Shown here piece by piece: positions 43,985 through 55,545 of a DNA stretch of 64,000 nt. The notes under the pieces are model-generated. The model had not been told where the DNA came from, did no database searches, and saw only the letters and a program-made list of their open reading frames with translations. The stretch comes from Clostridiales bacterium. Lineage in GTDB: Bacteria; Bacillota; Clostridia; Oscillospirales; Acutalibacteraceae. The DNA lies in NCBI GenBank assembly GCA_012519975.1, contig JAAYPE010000037.1:5129-69128 (forward strand), written 5' to 3'. The position numbers were made by a program, and so were the translations under genes. Position 1 is the stretch's first letter, and each line of letters opens with the position of its first letter.

Positions 43985-44953
43985 TTATATTAATTTATCT
44001 TCTTTTATATTTTGACAACTATTTAAAGCTAAAAAACTCCAATTAAGAATATCAAAGTAAACTTGCTCCCTTGTATCTTTATCTTCATTTAAAATCTCGT
44101 GTCTTGCATTTGGATATAAAATCATAGATGGGCTATGCCCTGCTGTTTCAAGATTAGTACAAGTTGCTTGCACTCCAACGCCAAATAATCCCACGGGGTC
44201 GTTTGCACCTGAAATTAGCAAAATAGGTAGTTGCGTTGGCACTTTATATGCCCAATCCCTTGCGCACGCATCAACTGCAAAAGAAAGTATTGTGCTGCAT
44301 TTCCCAAGTGAAAAAGGGTTGCCACACATTGGGTCATTGTTGTAGTTTTTGATGTTTTCTTCATTAAAACTAATCCAATCATTTTCAGTTTTTGGATTAT
44401 CTATTCCAATGCATTTTACTTTTGAAAAAAGTTTAGTTATTGTTTTTGCTGTTTTATCGGCACCCATTTTATCGGTAATTAAATTAAATGGTTTGTCAAG
44501 GAAAGTTAGAGAGGTTGGCACCTCCCCTGTTCCACAAAAAACAGCACCTGCAAGCTCTTCGCCAAATAAAGAAACATAAATCCTAGCACACAAAGAACCA
44601 ATGCTATGCCCAAACATAAAGTATGGCAGCTCTGGATATCTCTTAGACATTATGTTATATAACTTATGCATATCATCAATTACTCTTACCCTACCGTCTT
44701 TAGGCATTAAACTTAACTCTTCCAAACTTCCCGCAGATTTGCCGTGCCCAAGATGGTCGTTTCCGCAAACTATAAAACCGTTTGCCGCTAAAAAACGGGC
44801 GAATTCATCATATCTCCCTATATGTTCTGAAACACCGTGGGCAATTTGAAAAATTCCTACTGGAATAATTTCATCATCTTGCCAAATTAAACATCTTATC
44901 TTATGCTCACCTGTAGAAGACATAAAATAAGCCTCTTTGCGAATAATCGACAT
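43985..44953 (-). CDS. alpha/beta hydrolase (lysophospholipase / monoacylglycerol lipase-like)
   Basis: HGVSEH..GHGKS and the nucleophile elbow GHSIGS. ATG at 44953 is preferred for its GGAGG spacing. Confidence 0.85.
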   Translation of the reverse strand: MSIIRKEAYFMSSTGEHKIRCLIWQDDEIIPVGIFQIAHGVSEHIGRYDEFARFLAANGFIVCGNDHLGHGKSAGSLEELSLMPKDGRVRVIDDMHKLYNIMSKRYPELPYFMFGHSIGSLCARIYVSLFGEELAGAVFCGTGEVPTSLTFLDKPFNLITDKMGADKTAKTITKLFSKVKCIGIDNPKTENDWISFNEENIKNYNNDPMCGNPFSLGKCSTILSFAVDACARDWAYKVPTQLPILLISGANDPVGLFGVGVQATCTNLETAGHSPSMILYPNARHEILNEDKDTREQVYFDILNWSFLALNSCQNIKEDKLI

Positions 44954-45105
44954 TTGCATAACCTCCATAAAATAAGGAATTTAAAAAATCACATTATTGT
45001 ATCGCCAATTAGGCGGGACATAAGTTGAATATAATAATCGCTTGCGGTTATTATATCATATTTATTTATCGCTTGTAAACAAACATTCCCAGATAAAATT
45101 TACTA

Positions 45106-45145
45106 ATAAAAAACAAAGCTTACACCAACTATTGATGTAAGCTTT
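45106..45145 (-). terminator. intrinsic terminator of the permease gene
   Basis: AAAGCTTACA pairs with TGTAAGCTTT, followed by a T-run on the minus strand. Confidence 0.8.
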
Positions 45146-45153
45146 TATTTTTT

Positions 45154-46482
45154 TTAAATAGCAAATCCTTTTGATTTATCTTCTACTTCGCCATCTTTTT
45201 CAAAAACATATTCATTTCCAGGTAAAACAGCATTTAAAACAATACCTGCAATGGCCGCTATCGCAAGACCTGAAAGGCTTACTGGCACACTACCAATTTT
45301 AAAGGAAATAGAATCAATTCCTATTGCTGATACCAAAATTATAGCAGCAATTATAAGGTTTCTGCTGTTTGTAAAATCCACCTTATTTTCTACCAAATTT
45401 CTAGCGCCTATAGCTGAAATCATACCATAAAGTATAAATGAAACTCCACCTATTACAGCACTTGGTATTGTACCTATTAAAGCTGCAACCTTTGGTGAAA
45501 AAGAAAGAATAATCGACACGCCAGCTGCAATACGAACAACTACAGGGTCATAAACTTTTGTAAGTGCCAAAACACCTGTGTTCTCTCCATAAGTTGTATT
45601 TGCAGGGCCACCAAAACACGCTGAAAAAGTCGTTGCAAGACCATCACCTAAAAGTGTTCTGTGAATTCCTGGGTCTTTTATAAAGTTTTTTCCGGTTGTT
45701 GCACTAATTGCTGATACATCACCGATATGCTCCATCATAGTAGCAAGGGAAATAGGGACAATTGCAATTATCGCTGTAACTGCAAGTGATTTATCAGAAA
45801 ATGCGTTAGTAATAAATACGCTTTTATTCAGTGGTATACCTAACATATCTGCCTGTGCAACTTGCGAAAAATCTACCTCTTTAAGAAAAATTGCAAGTAT
45901 GTATGAAACTGCAATTCCAATAATTATTGGTACAATTTTTATCATACCCCTGCCGAAAATATTGCATATTATTATTGTTAAGAGTGCTACAATTGCAATC
46001 AACCAGTTTTCTCTACAATTATCCACTGCTGTTGGGGCAAGGATTAATCCAATTGAGATAATTATCGGGCCTGTAACTACTGGTGGAAAATATTTCATTA
46101 CCTTGTTTACGCCAAATGCCTTTATAAAGCCTGACAATATAACATAGACAAGCCCAGCAACTGCAACTCCAAGACAAGCGTACGGAAGCATTTCTTTGTT
46201 TGCTTCTCCATTTGCAAGCTTTGGTGCAACAGCTGCATATCCCCCTAAAAATGCAAATGATGAACCAAGAAAAACTGGAACCTTACCTTTGGTAATTAAG
46301 TGGAACATTAGTGTTCCAAGACCTGCCATCAAAAGTGTTGTAGCAATATCAAGCCCTGTTATAATTGGTACAAGGATTGTTGCTCCGAACATTGCAAAAG
46401 TGTGTTGGATACCAAGCAAAAGCATTTTTGGAGTGCCCAGTGTTTTCGCATCATAGATACCCTCATTTTTCATTTCTCCCAT
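45154..46482 (-). CDS. uraA: uracil permease (NCS2 family, UraA/PyrP-like)
   Basis: LGIQHTFAMFGATILVP and KVPVFLGSSFAF closely resemble UraA signature regions. Confidence 0.8.
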   Translation of the reverse strand: MGEMKNEGIYDAKTLGTPKMLLLGIQHTFAMFGATILVPIITGLDIATTLLMAGLGTLMFHLITKGKVPVFLGSSFAFLGGYAAVAPKLANGEANKEMLPYACLGVAVAGLVYVILSGFIKAFGVNKVMKYFPPVVTGPIIISIGLILAPTAVDNCRENWLIAIVALLTIIICNIFGRGMIKIVPIIIGIAVSYILAIFLKEVDFSQVAQADMLGIPLNKSVFITNAFSDKSLAVTAIIAIVPISLATMMEHIGDVSAISATTGKNFIKDPGIHRTLLGDGLATTFSACFGGPANTTYGENTGVLALTKVYDPVVVRIAAGVSIILSFSPKVAALIGTIPSAVIGGVSFILYGMISAIGARNLVENKVDFTNSRNLIIAAIILVSAIGIDSISFKIGSVPVSLSGLAIAAIAGIVLNAVLPGNEYVFEKDGEVEDKSKGFAI

Positions 46483-46510
46483 TTTAAAACTCCTTTACAT
46501 TTTATCATAT

Positions 46511-46552
46511 AAAAAAATAGCAACTCATTTTCAAAACGAAAATGAAGCTGCT
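46511..46552 (-). terminator. strong intrinsic terminator inside the permease 5' leader (candidate attenuator)
   Basis: AGCAGCUUCAUUUUC pairs with GAAAAUGAGUUGCU, followed by U7. It lies about 20 nt upstream of the AAAGGAG RBS and downstream of a TTGAAT-18-TATTAT promoter (46701..46672). Confidence 0.7.
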
Positions 46553-46734
46553 AAATTATTATAAAAAGCATTGTTAATAAAAATATTAGATATGTAATTT
46601 ATTTTTGTTTTATACCCAAAAGCCGAAAACACAAATAACACTCTCCATACCTACAAATTTAATTCCAAGATATAATATCATATTAAGCTACATAAATTCA
46701 AGCTTAAAACTTGTTAAAATAATTTTTGGTAGTT

Positions 46735-48063
46735 CTATGCATTAAAAATTACTTCTACCCTTGTTCCTTTGTTAATCTCACTAAAAACAGAAATCTTTGC
46801 ATCGTGATGTATTGCAACATGCTTTACTATTGCAAGCCCTAGACCTGTTCCGCCAGTCTCCTTACTTCTGCTTTTATCAACTCTATAAAATCTTTCAAAA
46901 ATTCTAACTTTATACTTTTCCGGTATACCAATGCCTGTATCCTCAACACAAATTTTTACTTTTTTTGCATCTGTATCATTTGATAGCGATATTTTAACCT
47001 CGCCACCATTTTTGTTATATTTTATAGCATTGTCACACAGGTTATATACAAGCTCATTTATCATCATTTTATTTGCAAAAACATTGCAAGGGCTTTCACC
47101 CTCTACAGTGATTTTTATATCATTTTGACGGGCGTTGAAATCCAACAGTTCTTTTATTTCAGTTGATATTTCATAAAGGTCAACTGCCTCAAAATTATGT
47201 TCACTATTTATAGGTTCATCAAGTTCTGACAGTTTTATAATATCTCCAATAAGATTTAAAAGTCTTTGTGCTTCTGTATGTATTTTTCCTGCAAATTCTT
47301 TAATGTCTTCTTTTTTAGCCATACCATTATCTATCATTTCTGCGTAACCTAAAATTGATGTGAGTGGTGTTTTAAGTTCGTGAGATACATTTGCTGTAAA
47401 CTCTTGCCTTATTTTTTCATTTTCTCTTTTTTTGTTTTTAAATTGGCTTACAGCATCAACAAGTGGCTCTAACTCTTTATAAGGCACATTTTTATCTATT
47501 TCATCGATATTTTTTCCCATTTCTTCGATTGGTTTTGTAATGTTTTTAGTAAGCTCTTTAGAAACAAATAAAGAGGCTAAAAATATAGCAAGTCCAATAG
47601 CTATAAAAATCTGAATAGGTGGGTTAAAAACTGAATAAGCATTTTCAACATCTTTAGATACACATAAAACACTGTTATTATCCAGTTTATTCACATAGTA
47701 AAAAGATTTGTAGCCTAGTTTTTTTGAAACCTTTACAACCTCGTATTTACCTTCACTTAGGGCTTTTTGTATTTCAAAGCTTTGAAGGACATTTTCAGCG
47801 TTTTTATTTTCAGAGTTTTCAAATATTATTTTTCCGTTTTTATCCACAATCATAACATTGAAATTATCAAAAGATAATTTACTATATTTTTGAACATCAT
47901 CGTATTCTTCATACACTTCAACAGCTACTTTTGACACCATTCTTATTCCATTTTTAATGCGGTTATTATAGTATTGATTGATAATAATCATAGTGCATAT
48001 CCACGTAATGAGCATAGAAGAAATACCAATTAAAAGCAATCTTGAATTAATTTTTTCTTCCAA
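46735..48063 (-). CDS. sensor histidine kinase (PhoR-like)
   Basis: Two TM helices, H-box SHELKTPLTSI and G-boxes DTGIGI / GGTGLGLAIVK. Confidence 0.85.
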   Translation of the reverse strand: MEEKINSRLLLIGISSMLITWICTMIIINQYYNNRIKNGIRMVSKVAVEVYEEYDDVQKYSKLSFDNFNVMIVDKNGKIIFENSENKNAENVLQSFEIQKALSEGKYEVVKVSKKLGYKSFYYVNKLDNNSVLCVSKDVENAYSVFNPPIQIFIAIGLAIFLASLFVSKELTKNITKPIEEMGKNIDEIDKNVPYKELEPLVDAVSQFKNKKRENEKIRQEFTANVSHELKTPLTSILGYAEMIDNGMAKKEDIKEFAGKIHTEAQRLLNLIGDIIKLSELDEPINSEHNFEAVDLYEISTEIKELLDFNARQNDIKITVEGESPCNVFANKMMINELVYNLCDNAIKYNKNGGEVKISLSNDTDAKKVKICVEDTGIGIPEKYKVRIFERFYRVDKSRSKETGGTGLGLAIVKHVAIHHDAKISVFSEINKGTRVEVIFNA

Positions 48064-48079
48064 TTAAGCTCCCCCACTT

Positions 48080-48751
48080 TTATTCTTTATCAATTTTATA
48101 CCCTACATTGCGAACAGTTTTAATCGCTGAACCACACTCGCCAAGTTTTTGACGCAAAGTTTTAATATGCATATCAACCGTTCTGCTCTCGCCCTCAAAA
48201 TCTGTATCCCAAACTTTAGACATTATTTTTTCTCTTGAAAGAACAATTCCCTTATTTACAAGCAAATATTTTAAAAGCTCATATTCTTTGTATGTACATT
48301 CACACACATTTCCGTTGGCTAAAACTAAATGCTTTTCATCGTCAAGCTCTATTCCCGACGCTTTATATATCAAAGGTTGAGCAGTGCTACCAGTGCGACG
48401 CAACACTGCTTTTACCCGGGAAATAAACTCCATTACGCCAAAGGGCTTTGACAAATAGTCGTCTGCCCCTGCATCAAGACCTTTTACAGTGTCAAGCTCG
48501 GATGATTTTGCAGTAACCATCACAACAGGTACATCCTTTGTTTTGTGGTCAGACTTTAAGCGTTTAAGAATAGAGATTCCGTCTTGGTCTGGTAGCATAA
48601 TGTCAAGCACAATTAACCGTGGTATTCTTTCTTCGCAAAGTGCAAACAGCTGTTTTGCATTATCACATTCAGCAACCTCATATCCACTATTTTTAAGTGC
48701 ATACGCCTGAAGCTGTCTTATATTTATATCATCTTCTACAATATATATCAT
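48080..48751 (-). CDS. OmpR/PhoB-family response regulator
   Basis: Receiver domain (VLDIMLPDQDG) plus winged-helix output (VDMHIKTLRQKL, TVRNVGYK). ATG at 48751 follows AGGTG. Confidence 0.9.
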   Translation of the reverse strand: MIYIVEDDINIRQLQAYALKNSGYEVAECDNAKQLFALCEERIPRLIVLDIMLPDQDGISILKRLKSDHKTKDVPVVMVTAKSSELDTVKGLDAGADDYLSKPFGVMEFISRVKAVLRRTGSTAQPLIYKASGIELDDEKHLVLANGNVCECTYKEYELLKYLLVNKGIVLSREKIMSKVWDTDFEGESRTVDMHIKTLRQKLGECGSAIKTVRNVGYKIDKE

Positions 48752-48778
48752 AGTAATCACCTATTACAGTATAAGCAA

Positions 48779-50542
48779 TTATATGTTTTTAGACAAGCTA
48801 TATTTTTCATAAAACTCTTTGTATTCGGCTGCAAAGACTTCATCATCCGAACTTTTAAGTTCTTTAATATATTCGTGCGTATCAAAATTATCTTGTTGCA
48901 CTTGAATTAAACAAAGAGCGATGTTTGAGCAATGGTCTGCTATTCTCTCATAATTCGTTATAAGGTCTGAGAAAATAAAGCCAATTTCTGTTGTGCATCC
49001 GCCTTTTCTTAGTCTTTCAATATGCCTTGCTTTTAGTTTTGATTTTAATTTATTTACCACCTGTTCAAGCGGTTCTACCCTTTTTGCAAGCCCCACATCA
49101 TCTTTTAAAAATGCGTCAAAAGCAATATTAATAATTTCTTTAACAGCAGAATGCATAACATTCAAATCGTCTGCTGCTTCTTTAGAAAAAGAAATCTCTT
49201 TGTCATTTATTTCTTTTGAAACTTTCATAATATTAACAGCGTGATCACTTACTCTTTCAAAATCACCTATACAGTGTAGCATTTTAAAGGTCTGCCTACT
49301 ATCATTTACAGACAAATCTTTGTTTGATAATTTAACTAGATATGTCCCAATTCTGTCTTCATACAGGTCGACTAAATCTTCTCCCGTTTTAACTTCTTCT
49401 GCTCTAGTGCTACTATACACTTTAGTCAGCGACATAGCATTAAACAATGTATCCCTTGCAATCTCAGCCATTTGACAGGTAGTTGCATAACACTGGCTTA
49501 CTGCCACTGATGGAGATGCTAGCAAACGGTCATCAAGAAGTCTGAACTCTTCTTCTATTGATGTCTCACTACTCTTAAAAGTTATGCAAGCGAGTTTTTC
49601 AAGTTGCTTGGTAAATGGTAAGAATATTATTGTTGCAAATAAATTGAAAATCGTATGAACTGCCGCGATTCCCATAGCGTTTATAGAATCATTTATAAAA
49701 GGAAACTTCAGTATTGCATTCAAAGAATAATAAACAACTAAAAATACTGTTGTTCCAATAATATTAAAATATAGATGTGCAACTGCAGCACGCTTTGCAT
49801 TTTTGTTTGTACCGATAGATGAAATCATTGCAGTTACGCAAGTTCCAATATTTTGACCCATTATTATGGGAACTGCAGACGCATAAGTTATGCTTCCGGT
49901 AGCTGATAGTGCCTGCAATATACCAACTGCTGCAGATGAGCTTTGAATAATTCCAGTAACTAAAGCTCCTGTTAAGATGCCAATTATTGGATTTGAAAAT
50001 AGGGTTAAAATGCTTGTAAACTCAGGAACATTTGCAAGCGGTTGAACTGCGTTGGACATTGTTTCCATTCCAAACATCAATACTGCAAATCCAAGCATAA
50101 TTCCGCCAATATCTTGTTTCTTTGTGCTTTTTGAAAACATAGAAAGAACGATACCAATTGCCGCTAAAACCGGTGAAAAAGATGAAGGTTTCATCATTTG
50201 CAATAACAAATTGTCACCCTGAATTCCAGTAAGGCTGATAAGCCAAGCTGTTATTGTTGTTCCTACATTGGCACCCATTATTATGCTAATTGCTTGACTT
50301 AGTTGCATAACTCCAGAGTTTACAAAGCCTACAACCATAACTGTTGTTGCAGATGAACTTTGAATAAGCGCTGTAACTCCTGCCCCGAGCAAAACGCCTT
50401 TTATTGGGTTTGATGTTAGTCTTTCTAGCACTGATTTAAATCTTCCGCCAGAGTGTTTTTCAAGTCCCTTCCCCATTACATCCATACCATAGAGAAAAAG
50501 TGCTAGTCCGCCAATAAATGTGAGTATTGAAAAAATATCCAT
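48779..50542 (-). CDS. Na/Pi cotransporter family protein with C-terminal PhoU-like domains
   Basis: 587 aa. Duplicated Na_Pi_cotrans repeats (QSSSATT / QSSSAAV). Confidence 0.9.
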   Translation of the reverse strand: MDIFSILTFIGGLALFLYGMDVMGKGLEKHSGGRFKSVLERLTSNPIKGVLLGAGVTALIQSSSATTVMVVGFVNSGVMQLSQAISIIMGANVGTTITAWLISLTGIQGDNLLLQMMKPSSFSPVLAAIGIVLSMFSKSTKKQDIGGIMLGFAVLMFGMETMSNAVQPLANVPEFTSILTLFSNPIIGILTGALVTGIIQSSSAAVGILQALSATGSITYASAVPIIMGQNIGTCVTAMISSIGTNKNAKRAAVAHLYFNIIGTTVFLVVYYSLNAILKFPFINDSINAMGIAAVHTIFNLFATIIFLPFTKQLEKLACITFKSSETSIEEEFRLLDDRLLASPSVAVSQCYATTCQMAEIARDTLFNAMSLTKVYSSTRAEEVKTGEDLVDLYEDRIGTYLVKLSNKDLSVNDSRQTFKMLHCIGDFERVSDHAVNIMKVSKEINDKEISFSKEAADDLNVMHSAVKEIINIAFDAFLKDDVGLAKRVEPLEQVVNKLKSKLKARHIERLRKGGCTTEIGFIFSDLITNYERIADHCSNIALCLIQVQQDNFDTHEYIKELKSSDDEVFAAEYKEFYEKYSLSKNI

Positions 50543-50612
50543 ACAATCGCCTCTGTTTTATTAAAAATAATATTTTACTAGGTATTTGCTTGTTTACATA
50601 ATATATTTTTAA

Positions 50613-50651
50613 AGTAAAAACCATAGCAAGTTAATGTAAAATCTATGTAAA
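50613..50651 (-). promoter_or_regulatory. Pho-box-like array: four TT(T/G)(A/C)(C/T)(A/T) hexamers phased every 11 bp
   Basis: The minus strand reads TTTACA-N5-TTTACA-N5-TTGCTA-N5-TTTACT, followed by TATATT as a -10 candidate, about 60-110 nt upstream of the Na/Pi gene. Confidence 0.5.
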
Positions 50652-50725
50652 TTTTAACAAAAAGTTATATACATCTATCTTTTGTTACATAAAAGCAATT
50701 AATCTTTACATTTTTTACCATATAC

Positions 50726-50759
50726 AGTTAATTCTAAATAATAGTTAATTCTAAATAAT
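50726..50759. repeat. perfect 17-bp tandem duplication (AGTTAATTCTAAATAAT x2)
   Basis: Direct reading gives 50726..50742 identical to 50743..50759. Confidence 0.95.
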
Positions 50760-50761
50760 AA

Positions 50762-50810
50762 TTAAAAATAAAATATGCCTGTAGCTTTAATTTTATAAGC
50801 ATACAGGCAT
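50762..50810 (-). terminator. intrinsic terminator of the FAD-dependent dehydrogenase gene
   Basis: ATGCCTGTA pairs with TACAGGCAT (extended imperfectly), followed by ATTTTATTTTT on the minus strand. Confidence 0.75.
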
Positions 50811-50817
50811 TTAATTA

Positions 50818-52209
50818 TTATTTCGACAAATCTCTTCCTTTAAGCACTCCCATAGCAGATGCCATCATAAGCCCTCTAGTCCAACCACTAGAGTCACCAA
50901 GACAACTAAGACCTTCTACGCTTGTGTTAAAATTCGCATCCATTTTTACGCGATTGCTATAAAATTTTAATTCTGGTGAATACAAAAGTGTTTCAATTGA
51001 AGCGAACCCTGGCACAACATTGTCTACAGCCTCTATAAAATTGATTATGTTTATCATCGCTCTATAGGGCATTGCCGCTGTTATATCTCCTGCTATGGCA
51101 TCGGGTAGCGTTGGTTTTATATTTGACCTTACAAGCTCTTTTTGCCAAGTTCTTTTACCGTCCAAAATATCTCCAAAGCGTTGAACAAGTATGTGCCCCG
51201 AGCCTAGCATATTAGTTAGCTCTCCAATTTTTTGCGCATATTCAATAGGTTGGTTAAAAGGCTCATTAAAGTTATGAGAACATAGTATTGCCAGATTTGT
51301 GTTATCCGATTTTTTCCCTTTATACGAATGGCCATTAACAACGGCTAAATCGTTATCATAATTTTCTTGACTTACAAATCCACCTGGGTTTTGGCAAAAT
51401 GTTCTAACTTTATTTTTAAAAGGTTTTGGATAACCAATAAGCTTTGATTCGTAAAGAACATTGTTTACTTTTTCCATAACTTCGTTTCTAACCTCTACAC
51501 GAACACCTATATCAACTGTTCCCGGCTCGTGGGCTATATTATGCTCTTGGCAAATTTTTTCAAACCAATCCGCACCTCTTCGACCTGTTGCTATGACTGT
51601 ATGCCTTGCCAATATTTCTAATGTTTCTTTATTATTTTTTATATTAACACCAAGGCATTTTTTATCCTTTAATATAATACTAGTGCATTCATATCCAAAT
51701 AAAATTTCTACACCGTTTTCAATCAAATACTGCTCAATTGCATAATAAATATCTTGAGCTTTCTCTGTTCCTAAGTGTCTTATTGGGCAATCAACAAGCT
51801 TTAAGCCTGCCTGTATCGCACGCTTTCTTATCTCTTTTACTTCCTCATCATTATGTATTCCTTCTATATGCTCGTCAGCACCAAAATCAAGATAGATTTG
51901 GTCAGTATAGTTAATCATTTCCTGAGCTAACTCTTCACCTATTAGCTGTGGCAAATCTCCTCCAACCTCGTGGCTTAAAGATAACTTTCCATCAGAAAAT
52001 GCTCCCGCACCTGAAAATCCAGTTGTTATATGACAATACGGTTTGCAATTAACGCAATATTTTGTTTTGCTTTTTGGACAACTTCTTTTTTCAATAGACT
52101 GCCCTTTTTCAACAATCAAAATATTTTTATTACTACCGTTTCTAATCATTTCGAGTGCCGTAAAAATACCCGCAGGTCCTGCCCCTACTATTACTACATC
52201 TTTATTCAT
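50818..52209 (-). CDS. uncharacterised FAD-dependent dehydrogenase (COG2509-like NAD(FAD)-utilising oxidoreductase)
   Basis: VVIVGAGPAGIF dinucleotide fold. 463 aa. No substrate-specific motif recognised. Confidence 0.8.
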   Translation of the reverse strand: MNKDVVIVGAGPAGIFTALEMIRNGSNKNILIVEKGQSIEKRSCPKSKTKYCVNCKPYCHITTGFSGAGAFSDGKLSLSHEVGGDLPQLIGEELAQEMINYTDQIYLDFGADEHIEGIHNDEEVKEIRKRAIQAGLKLVDCPIRHLGTEKAQDIYYAIEQYLIENGVEILFGYECTSIILKDKKCLGVNIKNNKETLEILARHTVIATGRRGADWFEKICQEHNIAHEPGTVDIGVRVEVRNEVMEKVNNVLYESKLIGYPKPFKNKVRTFCQNPGGFVSQENYDNDLAVVNGHSYKGKKSDNTNLAILCSHNFNEPFNQPIEYAQKIGELTNMLGSGHILVQRFGDILDGKRTWQKELVRSNIKPTLPDAIAGDITAAMPYRAMINIINFIEAVDNVVPGFASIETLLYSPELKFYSNRVKMDANFNTSVEGLSCLGDSSGWTRGLMMASAMGVLKGRDLSK

Positions 52210-52281
52210 TTTAATACCCCCTGATATTTGGGCATAAAAAAAGCCACCTAATTTTAACTACAACAATCCCTTTAACTAAAA

Positions 52282-52351
52282 GATTGTTATAGTCAACTGT
52301 AAGGCAGTTGGTAGAAACATTCATCCAAATAATGAATTTATATAATCAATC
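52282..52351 (-). promoter_or_regulatory. purine riboswitch aptamer, guanine-type (C at the specificity position)
   Basis: The reverse complement folds as P1/J1-2 UAA/P2-L2 (..UGG)/J2-3 GUUUCUAC/P3-L3 (CC..)/J3-1 AC/P1'. It starts a few nt after a predicted TSS. Confidence 0.75.
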
Positions 52352-52361
52352 GACAGATTAA

Positions 52362-52390
52362 TTATTACATTATTTTTATTAAAATGTCAA
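52362..52390 (-). promoter_or_regulatory. sigma-A type promoter driving the riboswitch leader
   Basis: TTGACA (52390..52385), 17-nt spacer ending in TG, then TAATAA. Confidence 0.5.
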
Positions 52391-52465
52391 TGCTTATTTA
52401 AAATAATTAACAATCTATTGTTTAATTATAGGTTTAAAACTAAAATTACTAGACTAATTTATTTT

Positions 52466-52493
52466 AACATATATATACAAGCTACATAAAATA
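52466..52493 (+). promoter_or_regulatory. candidate mother-cell (SigK-like) promoter for the collagen-like gene
   Basis: AC (52467..52468), 16-nt spacer, CATAAAATA (52485..52493), matching AC-16/17-CATAnnnTA. A chance match is plausible in AT-rich DNA. Confidence 0.3.
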
Positions 52494-52536
52494 TACTAAG
52501 GACTACTGCTCTAGTAGTTTTGAAGGGAGATATTTT

Positions 52537-53340
52537 ATGTGGAATAAATTTTGCTTAGAAACTATGGATACAAATGTTACGAATTTTAATGATTGCTATA
52601 ATTCTTATGGCTCTTATTGCTGTTGCAAATGCAGGTGCCATCATCGTCCCCCAAGACCACCCGTTCCTGTAATATATTGTAAAGACGGTAGGGATGGCAG
52701 AGATGGTAGAGACGGCCGTAATGGCCTGAATGGACGAAATGGTGAAAATGGGTTAAATGGTATTGACGGAGTAGATGGTAAAGACGGTATTGACGGTGTC
52801 GACGGTAAAGATGGTGTTGACGGTAAAGACGGTACACCTGGAAATGTGGTTGAGTGTGCTTGTATTTCCCAAATGACTAATTTAATCGAGCAAATAATAA
52901 ATCTTTATCCAATTTCAAACATTGATGTTACTACTGCAAGCGGAGATGTTAATACCGGAGTTCCTAACGCATTAGTGCCAAACTCAGCAACTAATGCTGG
53001 ATTGTTTGAATTAAAAACTGGAACAGGCGTTGTTACTGGCGCATTATCTATATGTAAAATTGCCGGAATACAAATCCCTGGAGTAACTTATAATGATAAC
53101 ATCACCTATTTGCCAGCACCTACCCCAAGCCCAGATGATTGCAGTGCTAATTGCCTCAATGCAATACAGGACTATCTACCAATTGGAACCGAAGATGTAA
53201 CAATCGAAGTCGGTGGCGTTCAAATTGCAAACGGAGCAGTTATAAGGAACGAATATGGAGTAATTGTTATATTTGACGATGTTAATGACACTCTCAGTTT
53301 TGTTTCCGCCTGCAAAGCTGAAGTAATTCAAAAAGGATAA
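52537..53340 (+). CDS. collagen-like triple-helix repeat protein with a Cys-rich N-terminus (BclA-like spore surface protein candidate)
   Basis: 17 consecutive G-X-Y triplets (GRD GRD GRD GRN GLN ... GKD GTP). 9 Cys in the first 48 aa. GGGAG RBS. Confidence 0.85.
   Translation: MWNKFCLETMDTNVTNFNDCYNSYGSYCCCKCRCHHRPPRPPVPVIYCKDGRDGRDGRDGRNGLNGRNGENGLNGIDGVDGKDGIDGVDGKDGVDGKDGTPGNVVECACISQMTNLIEQIINLYPISNIDVTTASGDVNTGVPNALVPNSATNAGLFELKTGTGVVTGALSICKIAGIQIPGVTYNDNITYLPAPTPSPDDCSANCLNAIQDYLPIGTEDVTIEVGGVQIANGAVIRNEYGVIVIFDDVNDTLSFVSACKAEVIQKG
52687..52842 (+). repeat. in-frame 9-nt periodic (GGN-NNN-GAY/AAY) collagen repeat tract
   Basis: Direct reading. The tract also creates a spurious antisense ORF at 52586..52837. 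Confidence 0.9.
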
Positions 53341-53371
53341 CAGTTTATACAAATATCATTTTTTATTATAA

Positions 53372-53401
53372 CGAGACTATGAGATTCATAGTCTTGTTTT
53401 T
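53372..53401 (+). terminator. intrinsic terminator
   Basis: CGAGACTATGA pairs with TCATAGTCTTG, followed by T5. Confidence 0.8.
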
Positions 53402-53474
53402 ATTTAACAAAATATACTTATAAAATTGCTAAATCTGTTAATACTATTTTTAAGTAATTTTAGGAGTGATTTTT

Positions 53475-53648
53475 ATGGCTAAAGCTGGAATGAAACGACC
53501 AGACCCAAAACAACCACACGGCACAGAAAGCAACAAGAAAACTCACTTGTCAAAAAATAGTGTTCCACCCGTTCCCGAAATTCAAGGCAAAGCAAAAAGC
53601 GGAAAAGAAAAAGCAAATCCAATCTTTAAAAACAATGACCACAAGTAA
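53475..53648 (+). CDS. small lysine-rich hypothetical protein (57 aa)
   Basis: ATG at 53475 lies 8 nt after an AGGAG RBS. MAKAGMKRPDPKQPHGTESNKK... No family recognised. Confidence 0.5.
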   Translation: MAKAGMKRPDPKQPHGTESNKKTHLSKNSVPPVPEIQGKAKSGKEKANPIFKNNDHK

Positions 53649-53685
53649 AGTAGCCACGATAAAATTGTATCACGGCTACAAATTG

Positions 53686-54153
53686 TTATTTATTTTCGTT
53701 ACTAATTATATGCTCTAAAAGTGCTTGACATCCCTCATAAACATCATTATAAGTTATGTCAAAATCACCTGTGTACCAAGGGTCAGCAATATCCCCTTTT
53801 CTTTTTGTAAAATCAAGTAGCATAAACACCTTGTTTTCTTTATCATTATCAAACAACTTGTTTAAATTTGTTATGTTTTTGTTGTCCATTCCAATTATAT
53901 AATCATATTTATCATAATCAGATTTTTTTATCTGAACCGAGATTTTTCCGTCTGTAGATATGTTAAACTCATTTAACTTATCCCTTGTTCCATAGTGAAC
54001 TTTGCTTCCTATAGCATCTGTGCTAGTTGCAGATGATGCTATAAGAAACGAAGACTCTAGCCCTCTCTTTTTCACTATATCCTTAAACACAAATTCAGCC
54101 ATTGGTGACCTGCAAATATTGCCGTGGCACACAAACATTACTTTAATCATCAT
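53686..54153 (-). CDS. low-molecular-weight protein-tyrosine phosphatase
   Basis: VCHGNICRSP (CX5R-S) P-loop and DPWY motif. Confidence 0.9.
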   Translation of the reverse strand: MMIKVMFVCHGNICRSPMAEFVFKDIVKKRGLESSFLIASSATSTDAIGSKVHYGTRDKLNEFNISTDGKISVQIKKSDYDKYDYIIGMDNKNITNLNKLFDNDKENKVFMLLDFTKRKGDIADPWYTGDFDITYNDVYEGCQALLEHIISNENK

Positions 54154-54274
54154 AGCTCTCCTTTAATTTAATATAATATTTTTTATAATGAACAGTACAG
54201 ATACATAGTTATATTTTAACATATTCTTTTATTATTTCAACATATATTTGTTTAAGATTTATATCGTTAAATTA

Positions 54275-54303
54275 TTGACAATCATAAACTTATATACTAT
54301 AAT
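54275..54303 (+). promoter_or_regulatory. consensus sigma-A promoter for the alcohol dehydrogenase gene
   Basis: TTGACA, 17-nt spacer, TATAAT. Confidence 0.6.
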
Positions 54304-54369
54304 GTCATTGTAATCTTTTAAACGGGCATCTTTTTTAGATTGCAAAATTAAAAATTGGAGGAATTATAA

Positions 54370-55545
54370 ATGGCAAGATTTACATTACCAAGAGATTTAT
54401 ATCACGGAAAAGGTTCAATCGACGCATTAAAAGATTTAATAGGTAAAAAGGCTTTTGTAGTCGTTGGTGGCGGAAGTATGAAAAAATTTGGTTTTCTTGA
54501 CAAAGTTGTAGCAAACCTTGAAGAAGCAGGAATGCAAGTCGAGCTTTTTGAGGGAGTTGAACCAGACCCATCAGTTGAAACTGTAAAAAAAGGTGCAAAA
54601 GCAATGCAGCAATTTGAGCCTGACTGGATTGTATCTATTGGCGGTGGCTCACCTATTGACGCTGCAAAAGCAATGTGGGCATTTTATGAGTACCCAGACA
54701 CAACTTTTGAAGACTTGTGTATACCATTTAACTTCCCAAGACTTCGCACAAAAGCACATTTCTGCGCAATTCCTTCAACATCTGGAACAGCAACAGAAGT
54801 TACTGCTTTCTCTGTTATAACTGATTATGAAAAGGGCATTAAATATCCGCTTGCAGACTTTAATATTACACCTGATGTTGCAATTGTTGACCCTGACCTT
54901 GCAGAAACAATGCCAAAAAAACTTACAGCACACACTGGTATGGATGCTATGACGCACGCAATAGAGGCTTATGTTTCCACCCTTAATTGTGATTACACAG
55001 ACCCACTTGCCCTGCACGCAATTAAAATGGTTAGTGAATTTTTAATTGATTCTTACAACGGTGACAGCACCGCAAGAGAAAGAATGCACAACGCACAATG
55101 CCTTGCTGGAATGGCATTTTCTAACGCTTTGCTTGGTATTGTCCACTCAATGGCTCACAAAACTGGTGCAGCTTATAGTGGCGGGCATATTGTTCACGGT
55201 TGTGCAAACGCTATGTATTTACCAAAAGTTATAAAGTTTAATGCCGTTAATGAAACTGCAAATAAAAGATATTGTGATATTGCAAAATTCATTGGACTAG
55301 AACCAACAGTTGATGCTCTTATTTCTCATATAAACGAGCTTAACAAAAAGCTTGATATTCCGAGTTGTATTAAAGACTATGAGGGTGGAATAATCGACGA
55401 AAAAGAATTCCTTGATAAACTTCCAAATGTTGCAAAATTAGCAGTTGGTGACGCTTGCACTGGTTCAAACCCTAGAGAAATCACACCAGAGCAAATGGAA
55501 AAGCTCCTTACTTGTTGTTATTATGATACAGAAGTTAACTTTTAA
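54370..55545 (+). CDS. iron-containing (group III) alcohol dehydrogenase
   Basis: GGGSPIDAAKAMW and the His-rich metal site (HxxxH: HSMAHKTG). Confidence 0.9.
   Translation: MARFTLPRDLYHGKGSIDALKDLIGKKAFVVVGGGSMKKFGFLDKVVANLEEAGMQVELFEGVEPDPSVETVKKGAKAMQQFEPDWIVSIGGGSPIDAAKAMWAFYEYPDTTFEDLCIPFNFPRLRTKAHFCAIPSTSGTATEVTAFSVITDYEKGIKYPLADFNITPDVAIVDPDLAETMPKKLTAHTGMDAMTHAIEAYVSTLNCDYTDPLALHAIKMVSEFLIDSYNGDSTARERMHNAQCLAGMAFSNALLGIVHSMAHKTGAAYSGGHIVHGCANAMYLPKVIKFNAVNETANKRYCDIAKFIGLEPTVDALISHINELNKKLDIPSCIKDYEGGIIDEKEFLDKLPNVAKLAVGDACTGSNPREITPEQMEKLLTCCYYDTEVNF

Follow-up and report, generated by a model that had tools for sequence, protein, structure and literature searches.

A guanine-type purine riboswitch aptamer with a five-nucleotide L3 loop, placed in front of an uncharacterised FAD-dependent protein, raises the question of whether the RNA works as a switch, which ligand it would sense and in which direction it would control its gene. 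We addressed this within a stretch of 64,000 nucleotides (the window), in orthologous loci and in metagenome sequences. We judge it probable, at roughly 0.7, that the element is a functional purine riboswitch of the guanine class, which under kinetic control switches on transcription of a unit consisting of one gene, that of an uncharacterised Cys4 flavoprotein.

Aptamer architecture and conservation

The minus-strand sequence agreed with that quoted in the first-pass annotation, and the layout of elements proposed there (P1, J1/2, P2, L2, J2/3, P3, L3 and J3/1) was borne out as follows.

52282..52351, minus strand: purine (guanine-class) riboswitch aptamer, identified by Rfam RF00167, the minimum-energy fold, covariation and our own covariance model (75.8 bits)
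52351-52341 / 52291-52282, minus strand: P1, GAUUGAUUAUA / UAUAACAAUC, 10 bp with one bulged A
52340-52338, minus strand: J1/2, UAA
52337-52332 / 52324-52319, minus strand: P2, AUUCAU/AUGAAU
52331-52325, minus strand: L2, UAUUUGG, 7 nt
52325..52326, minus strand: L2 GG, predicted from solved structures to form two Watson-Crick kissing pairs with L3 CC at 52304-52303 (PMC12282948)
52318-52311, minus strand: J2/3, GUUUCUAC, 8 nt, exactly canonical
52310-52305 / 52299-52294, minus strand: P3, CAACUG/CAGUUG
52304-52300, minus strand: L3, CCUUA, 5 nt with one adenine
52293-52292, minus strand: J3/1, AC, the C at 52292 being C74

The earlier assignment to RF00167, guanine type, was upheld by a covariance-model score of 49.5 bits, above the gathering score of 37 and with E = 2.5e-5 over the full 64 kb, and by the C at position 74. 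The match was full-length (model positions 1-102) and spanned 52365-52270 on the minus strand; relative to the model, the window sequence was without two positions in the P2 arm, one base pair in P3 and two nucleotides in L3. RF00167 was the sole Rfam family observed in the 64-kb window, and also the sole one at a permissive E-value in 44500-54500. When folded in isolation, the aptamer adopted the three-way junction as its minimum-energy structure (-15.3 kcal/mol, z = -3.2). The ligand-pocket nucleotides U22, U47, U51 and C74 were all canonical for the guanine class, and the conserved junction set (U22, A23; G46-U47-U48-U49-C50-U51-A52-C53; A73) was exact. Judged from its sequence, the window RNA, which lies upstream of an uncharacterised FAD protein, is a genuine guanine-type purine riboswitch aptamer whose L3 is shortened. 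Its pocket nucleotides point to a ligand of the guanine class, and the pairing of L2 GG with L3 CC would follow by analogy with the solved structures.

A familiar comparison is the guanine-I aptamer of Bacillus subtilis xpt-pbuX (RF00167), in which the P2 arm is 21 nt, the P3 arm 19 nt and L3 7 nt; the corresponding lengths in the window were 19, 17 and 5 nt. The two share the three-way junction, the GUUUCUAC J2/3, U22-A23 in J1/2 and A73-C74 in J3/1, and the top two P1 pairs match, as do L2 GG and L3 CC. They differ in their platforms (predicted to be ON in the window, OFF in xpt) and in their genes, a flavoprotein in the window and salvage, transport or biosynthesis genes for xpt.

A total of 80 species-representative orthologous loci (protein identity 80% or higher) were compared, and the aptamer was observed in five (L001, L002, L003, L027, L030), 60-80 nt before the start codon. 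With the aptamer carried by only five of these 80 close orthologues, the regulation is dispensable for the gene. The source genomes of the aptamer-bearing leaders ranged from 34 to 68% GC. The five were found without imposing junction nucleotides beyond TTTCTA and without imposing GG/CC, and in all five J1/2, J2/3 and J3/1 were exactly canonical and GG/CC was kept. This intact junction agrees with the first-pass reading. The window aptamer and these five orthologues all carry C at position 74, which places them in the guanine rather than the adenine class. A C at this position marks guanine-type aptamers and a U adenine-type aptamers, an established rule restated in PMC12282948. Our own covariance model retrieved exactly the window and these five and nothing else in 736 kb; divergent purine aptamers were detected with it in none of the 80 loci. 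Upstream of 34 orthologues lacking the switch, no other Rfam element was found on the gene strand; the orthologues without it lay in varied operons or had short leaders.

Among orthologues, RF00167 scores were 62.9 bits for L001, 55.5 for L002, 51.3 for L003, 56.8 for L097 and 42.4 for L103, while L027, L030 and L154 did not reach the gathering score. Since it is the members with the shortest L3 that score below it, standard annotation would miss them. With our own covariance model, L027 (3861-3929) and L030 (3867-3934) each scored about 70 bits. The L154 aptamer, at about 2244-2280, is a clear homologue of the window aptamer.

Covariation was measured on 25 distinct aptamers in front of homologues of the gene, both orthologous and more distant, and it was strong in P1, P2 and P3. 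Paired cells amounted to 91%; shuffling lowered this to 77% and sliding the partners to 30-44%, and the observed covariation score was reached by none of 500 shuffles. Changes on both sides were seen in 15 of the 21 pairs (P2 6/6, P3 4/6, P1 5/7). L2 GG and L3 CC were present in 24-25 of the 25 aligned aptamers, although the search pattern had imposed them on the metagenome members.

The short L3 loop and ligand specificity

L2 and L3 of the solved purine aptamers are 7 nt each and interact through two G-C pairs and three non-canonical pairs, and the L3 adenines, paired with L2 nucleotides, build quadruples upon both G-C pairs (PMC12282948). The first-pass annotation was right that L3 is 5 nt rather than 7 in the window, but imprecise in letting the lost adenosines dock into P2, as their partners are in L2 (PMC12282948). 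The window RNA has a 7-nt L2 with GG and the CC of L3, and its L3 is too short for the full canonical loop-loop interaction. An L3 of 5 nt would leave room for no more than one of the three non-canonical pairs between L2 and L3, so affinity or Mg2+ dependence may be poor. The described exception among purine aptamers is 2'-dG-I of Mesoplasma florum, where L3 is 4 nt and only the two G-C loop-loop pairs are kept (PMC12282948). This class provides a structural precedent for a short L3, though without the guanine-I junction: its junction is altered and its ligand is a nucleoside, whereas the junction in the window is an unaltered guanine-I junction. A guanine-I pocket coexists in nature with an L3 of 4-5 nt.

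A metagenome scan that required an exact J2/3, C74, GG, CC and 17-19 nt for the P3 arm returned at least 120 loci. These counts are a sample and not a census, and because the search pattern fixes J2/3, C74, GG and CC they are silent on variation at those positions, for which the independent evidence comes only from the window and the five genome orthologues. Some species were sampled more than once, which inflates the counts: of the listed metagenome aptamers that precede the gene, only 19 were distinct. Arm lengths among the loci listed, and in relation to protein identity, were as follows.

P3 arm of 19 nt: 75 of the 120 metagenome loci listed
P3 arm of 18 nt: 37 of the 120 metagenome loci listed
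P3 arm of 17 nt: 8 of the 120 metagenome loci listed
P2 3' strand of 6 nt: 84 of the 120 metagenome loci listed
P2 3' strand of 7 nt: 36 of the 120 metagenome loci listed
Protein identity to the window of 70% or more: P3 arm 16-18 nt, mostly 17 (one partial match 19)
Protein identity to the window of 48-52%: P3 arm 18 nt
Protein identity to the window of 37-45%: P3 arm 18-19 nt

A 6-bp P2 is the commoner form among the matches listed, which are largely from the gut, and the window is unusual in L3 length only; an L3 of 6 nt was frequent and one of 5 nt rare among these matches. The short L3, 4-6 nt long, marks the lineage of riboswitches that precede close orthologues of the gene, those with at least 70% identity. 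The more distant homologues had an ordinary L3 of 6-7 nt upstream, e.g. CCGUAA(A) or CCGGAA(A), and the link to the gene is thus independent of the short loop.

A shortened loop in front of an unexpected gene could also mean that the ligand has changed, the RNA being a variant for 2'-deoxyguanosine, 8-oxoguanine, xanthine, urate or the flavoprotein's own substrate. We consider this improbable. Earlier specificity variants were recognised by their atypical gene associations (PMC9295807), 2'-dG-I is the one described class whose L3 is very short, at 4 nt (PMC12282948), and L027, L030 and L154 combine the shortest loops with scores below the Rfam threshold; however, the described variants (xanthine-II, guanine-II, 2'-dG-I/II/III and 8-oxoG) alter J2/3 or J3/1, for example by U51G, a 1-2-nt insertion in J2/3 or an insertion in J3/1 (PMC9295807, PMC12282948). 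Neither junction carries a substitution or an insertion in the window, the three joining segments (J1/2, GUUUCUAC and the AC of J3/1) being canonical there as in the five genome orthologues, and the distant homologues with an ordinary L3 likewise argue against a ligand change tied to this gene. Xanthine-II, guanine-II, 2'-dG-III and 8-oxoG aptamers do resemble the window RNA in having ON-type platforms that overlap P1/P3 and catabolic or atypical genes, but the J2/3 and J3/1 substitutions or insertions that distinguish them are absent from it. The variant aptamer with altered specificity put forward in the first-pass annotation was left without support, as every pocket and junction nucleotide is canonical when set against the described variants (PMC9295807).

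Expression platform and switch direction

The leader and its gene contained the following features.

52385..52390, minus strand: -35 hexamer TTGACA, an 11/12 match together with the -10 and the best site in 50000-53500
52361..52369, minus strand: extended -10, with TG at 52369-52368, one base, and AATAAT at 52366-52361
52236..52307, minus strand: predicted composite intrinsic terminator, from the minimum-energy fold of the full leader
52307-52302 / 52249-52244, minus strand: outer terminator stem, CUGCCU / AGGUGG, its 5' arm combining the final four nucleotides of the P3 5' strand with the first two of L3
52296-52278 / 52272-52254, minus strand: inner 19-bp helix, UUGACUAUAACAAUCUUUU / AAGGGAUUGUUGUAGUUAA, its 5' arm being the P3 3' end, J3/1 and the whole P1 3' strand
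52277-52273, minus strand: loop of the inner helix, AGUUA
52243-52236, minus strand: C+U7 directly after the hairpin (U7 at 52242-52236)
52217..52221, minus strand: Shine-Dalgarno GGGGG, 7 nt upstream of the start codon (ATG at 52209)
50818..52209, minus strand: regulated gene, a 463-aa FAD-dependent protein with PF21688 FAD-depend_C and a Rossmann FAD domain
50763..50810, minus strand: intrinsic terminator just 3' of the stop codon of the gene, ATGCCTGTA at 50810-50802 / TACAGGCAT at 50783-50775, with a T-rich run at 50774-50763

The promoter is the best sigma-70-like site in 50000-53500. It is the same site that the first-pass annotation gave as TTGACA-17-TAATAA, which had been read one base off: the spacing is 18 nt and the -10 is AATAAT. 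From this spacing, transcription would start near 52354, about 3 nt 5' of P1. The terminator after the stop codon was read from the sequence, having been missed by a simple scan, and its position directly after the stop codon makes the riboswitch-controlled unit a single gene. Divergent from the riboswitch promoter is a gene at 52537..53340 (plus strand) for a 267-aa protein with a Cys/His-rich N-terminus (CCCKCRCHH) and Gly-X-Asp/Asn collagen-like triplets (Pfam Collagen, E = 6e-10); a terminator was observed after it at 53370-53398.

The first-pass claim that no canonical terminator follows the aptamer was not sustained. A simple hairpin scan found no stand-alone hairpin terminator downstream of the aptamer, because the terminator is not a separate hairpin but is built from aptamer strands: the composite hairpin overlaps P3, L3 and the P1 3' strand and ends at C+U7. 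The full leader adopts this hairpin in its minimum-energy structure (-40.8 kcal/mol, z = -4.1). The terminator state reached -31.9 kcal/mol and the aptamer-constrained state -16.9 kcal/mol, a difference of 15 kcal/mol in favour of the terminator, and with the aptamer enforced the rest of the leader folded weakly (about -4 kcal/mol) and formed no alternative terminator. Because aptamer and terminator share strands they are mutually exclusive, and such exclusive folds would amount to an ON-switch design. With so large a stability gap in favour of the terminator, control would have to be kinetic.

Under this model transcription would begin near 52354 and the aptamer (52351-52282) would be made first. 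Guanine, hypoxanthine or xanthine in the junction would pair with C74 at 52292 and lock P1 and P3, the kiss between L2 GG and L3 CC holding P2 and P3 together. The strands at 52272-52254 and 52249-52244 would then be left without partners, the U7 tract would have no abutting hairpin, and polymerase would read into the gene. Without ligand, the downstream strands would invade P1 and P3/L3 to form the far more stable composite hairpin (52307-52244), and transcription would stop at U7 (52242-52236).

In B. subtilis, the adenine riboswitch of pbuE (ydhL) turns transcription on, and its terminator is made from the 3' half of the aptamer and downstream sequence. The window RNA resembles it in its predicted ON logic and in the far more stable terminator formed from the P3 and P1 3' strands, and sharing of P1/P3 strands by the terminator stem, the mark of a pbuE-type ON riboswitch, was found in the predicted folds. 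It differs in carrying C where pbuE carries U at position 74, and in its gene, that of pbuE encoding a purine efflux pump. ON switching under kinetic control has also been proposed for the xanthine-II, 2'-dG-III and 8-oxoG variants.

The same terminator design was observed in all five orthologous leaders, mostly with stronger outer stems. The stem in the window has only 6 bp, two of them G-U pairs, and is weaker than that of L002 or L030. The outer stems noted were:

L002: CAACUGCCUUA / UAAGGCAGUUG, then U7
L003: GCCUUAC / GUGUAAGGC, then U4
L027: GCUGCCUU / AAGGGCGGC, then U4
L030: CUGCCCUCA / UGAGGGCAG, then UUUUUUAUUU

Across the orthologous leaders L3 covaried with the terminator 3' arm (CCUUA/UAAGG, CCCUCA/UGAGGG, CCUUU/AAGGG), and L3 would thus be under a double constraint, the kiss with L2 and pairing in the terminator. 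Two further loci with 97% protein identity (L201 and L203) had an aptamer identical to that of the window and differed from it at several positions of the downstream platform (compared over window 52205-52395). Their few substitutions fell in the spacers and in the loop and 3' arm of the inner terminator helix, where the change from GGGAUUG to GGAAUUG gives an A-C mismatch.

These observations bear on whether the element is a decaying relic, in which the truncated L3 has destroyed the loop-loop contact and the leader has become a constitutive attenuator or an ordinary 5' UTR. The reduced canonical L2-L3 contacts, the absence of the aptamer from 75 of the 80 close orthologues and the drop in Rfam scores as L3 shortens are what decay would leave behind. 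Yet the helices covary and the junctions are intact in genomes of 34-68% GC, GG/CC is kept in the window and in the five genome orthologues, whose detection did not require it, strains share an unchanged aptamer but differ at flanking platform positions, and the mutually exclusive terminator is kept by compensatory changes that involve L3 itself. Moreover, 2'-dG-I binds its ligand with a 4-nt L3 (PMC12282948). Decay is in our view unlikely, and a functional ON switch is the better account of the leader.

An OFF switch or translational control, in which bound purine would turn the flavoprotein gene down in the manner of xpt or purE, is the least probable alternative: most characterised guanine riboswitches are OFF switches, the xpt and purE leaders among the matches listed have OFF-type platforms and a weak hairpin can take in sequence just ahead of the Shine-Dalgarno, but the sole hairpin abutting a U-tract uses the P1 3' strand and P3/L3 and is incompatible with a bound aptamer, the enforced aptamer leaves no terminator, and the Shine-Dalgarno pairs with no aptamer strand in the leader fold.

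The regulated flavoprotein and its proposed link to purines

The 463-aa protein matched PF21688 with 47.6 bits (cut-off 27) and carried a GxGxxG motif at residues 9-14, while no NCBIfam model reached its cut-off. This agrees with the first-pass description of an uncharacterised FAD protein, COG2509-like by description, and of a gene outside purine biosynthesis, salvage and transport. Its sole solved relative was the uncharacterised Vibrio protein 3NLC (E = 4e-24). An AlphaFold2 model from a shallow 33-sequence alignment (82-88% identity) had a mean pLDDT of 51, with the whole C-terminal domain below 50. Four cysteines (Cys44-x7-Cys52-x2-Cys55-x3-Cys59) were invariant in 33 orthologues and suggest a metal or Fe-S site. 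The PF21688 flavoprotein family comprised 715 representative clusters at E<=1e-30, and proteins of 80-88% identity were distributed across Clostridia MAGs (Oscillospiraceae, Acutalibacteraceae and Christensenella-like genomes).

No conserved operon partner emerged, as no neighbour family occurred in more than 6-7 of the 80 orthologous loci; the neighbours seen included folB/folP, U32 peptidase, nucleoside-type ABC transporter parts, upp and rluD. In the riboswitch-bearing loci the gene was mostly monocistronic, with neighbours that were unrelated or on the opposite strand. Operon partners were dropped as a functional clue, none being general across the family. In six loci of Oscillibacter and Dysosmobacter type (L020, L023, L028, L056, L058, L065) the flavoprotein gene began 16-40 nt downstream of a same-strand gene of the peptidase U32 family, and the two are probably co-transcribed given this arrangement; folB/folP lay upstream of it in another 5-6 loci. 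On the minus strand 3' of the flavoprotein unit, the window carried a Na/Pi-cotransporter with two fused PhoU domains (48779..50542), a PhoP/PhoR-like two-component pair (48080..48760 and 46735..48063) and an NCS2 uracil/xanthine-type permease (45154..46482). In about 250 nt upstream of the permease, no Rfam family was found even at E<=1.

Homologues of the flavoprotein were the commonest downstream gene among the 120 metagenome loci listed (25 by clustering, 29 by tblastn). They had 36-77% identity to the window protein and fell into three subfamilies, and PF21688 was confirmed in members at 39% and 52% identity. Taking metagenome loci and orthologues together, the riboswitch-gene link recurred across three protein subfamilies at 37-88% identity. 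The other downstream genes among the loci listed were:

Amidohydrolase: 21 of 120, mostly ON
AzgA/PbuG-type permease: 17 of 120, mixed platforms
xpt: 14 of 120, mostly OFF
purE: 8 of 120, mostly OFF
guaB: 5 of 120

The terminator 5' arm lay inside P3/L3 or the P1 3' strand in 28 of the 31 flavoprotein-associated leaders listed, while a terminator placed fully downstream (OFF design) was observed in 10 of the 14 xpt leaders listed and also in purE leaders. The automatic ON/OFF classifier was noisy, with values below -40 being artefacts of P1 closing before a chance U-run, and it picked the wrong hairpin in some leaders (L102); the flavoprotein set was inspected by eye.

Guanine-I-type aptamers with the exact GUUUCUAC J2/3 and C74, mostly ON-type, also preceded amidohydrolases (L121, with its aptamer at about 276-314 on the minus strand, L118, L123, L138, L145, L180, L182, L187, L198 and others). 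The L121 amidohydrolase passed the NCBIfam 8-oxoguanine deaminase equivalog NF006055 (552.5 bits against 532). The published 8-oxoG class is a pocket variant restricted to Paenibacillaceae, and the aptamers of these gut amidohydrolases therefore look like ordinary guanine sensors that precede a related deaminase. The flavoprotein gene and a riboswitch-controlled amidohydrolase were co-located in one locus only (L022).

Among the papers searched, none linked a purine or guanine riboswitch to a FAD-dependent, COG2509, K07137 or PF21688 protein, and the repeated pairing of guanine-class ON switches with this abundant gut-Clostridia flavoprotein family is apparently unreported. The anaerobic urate and purine pathways described in two recent papers (XdhD/DOPDH, YgfK/UacX, SsnA and others) likewise include no PF21688 enzyme.

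The RNA itself belongs to a textbook family and adds little to riboswitch chemistry; the interest lies in the regulated gene. The ON logic would suit an enzyme wanted when purines are abundant, for example in purine catabolism or detoxification, and the first-pass proposal that the flavoprotein may act on a purine-derived substrate is much strengthened by a riboswitch-gene link spanning three subfamilies. Going further, it is possible, though we offer this tentatively, that the Cys4 PF21688 (COG2509-like) flavoproteins of gut Clostridia are purine-induced enzymes acting on guanine, hypoxanthine, xanthine or a direct derivative. They might then catalyse a redox reaction, so far unrecognised, in the anaerobic catabolism or detoxification of purines, separate from the XdhD/YgfK 2,8-dioxopurine pathway, with the guanine ON-riboswitch as their native inducer and the short-L3 aptamers as a natural minimal-kissing-loop form of guanine-I. 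The occurrence of ON switches in front of three flavoprotein subfamilies and of guanine-deaminase-like amidohydrolases leads to the testable hypothesis that the enzyme handles excess purines, which is topical because purine and urate degradation by gut bacteria has only just been worked out, in published pathways without such an enzyme. For a widespread flavoprotein family, the link to purines would be the first functional clue.
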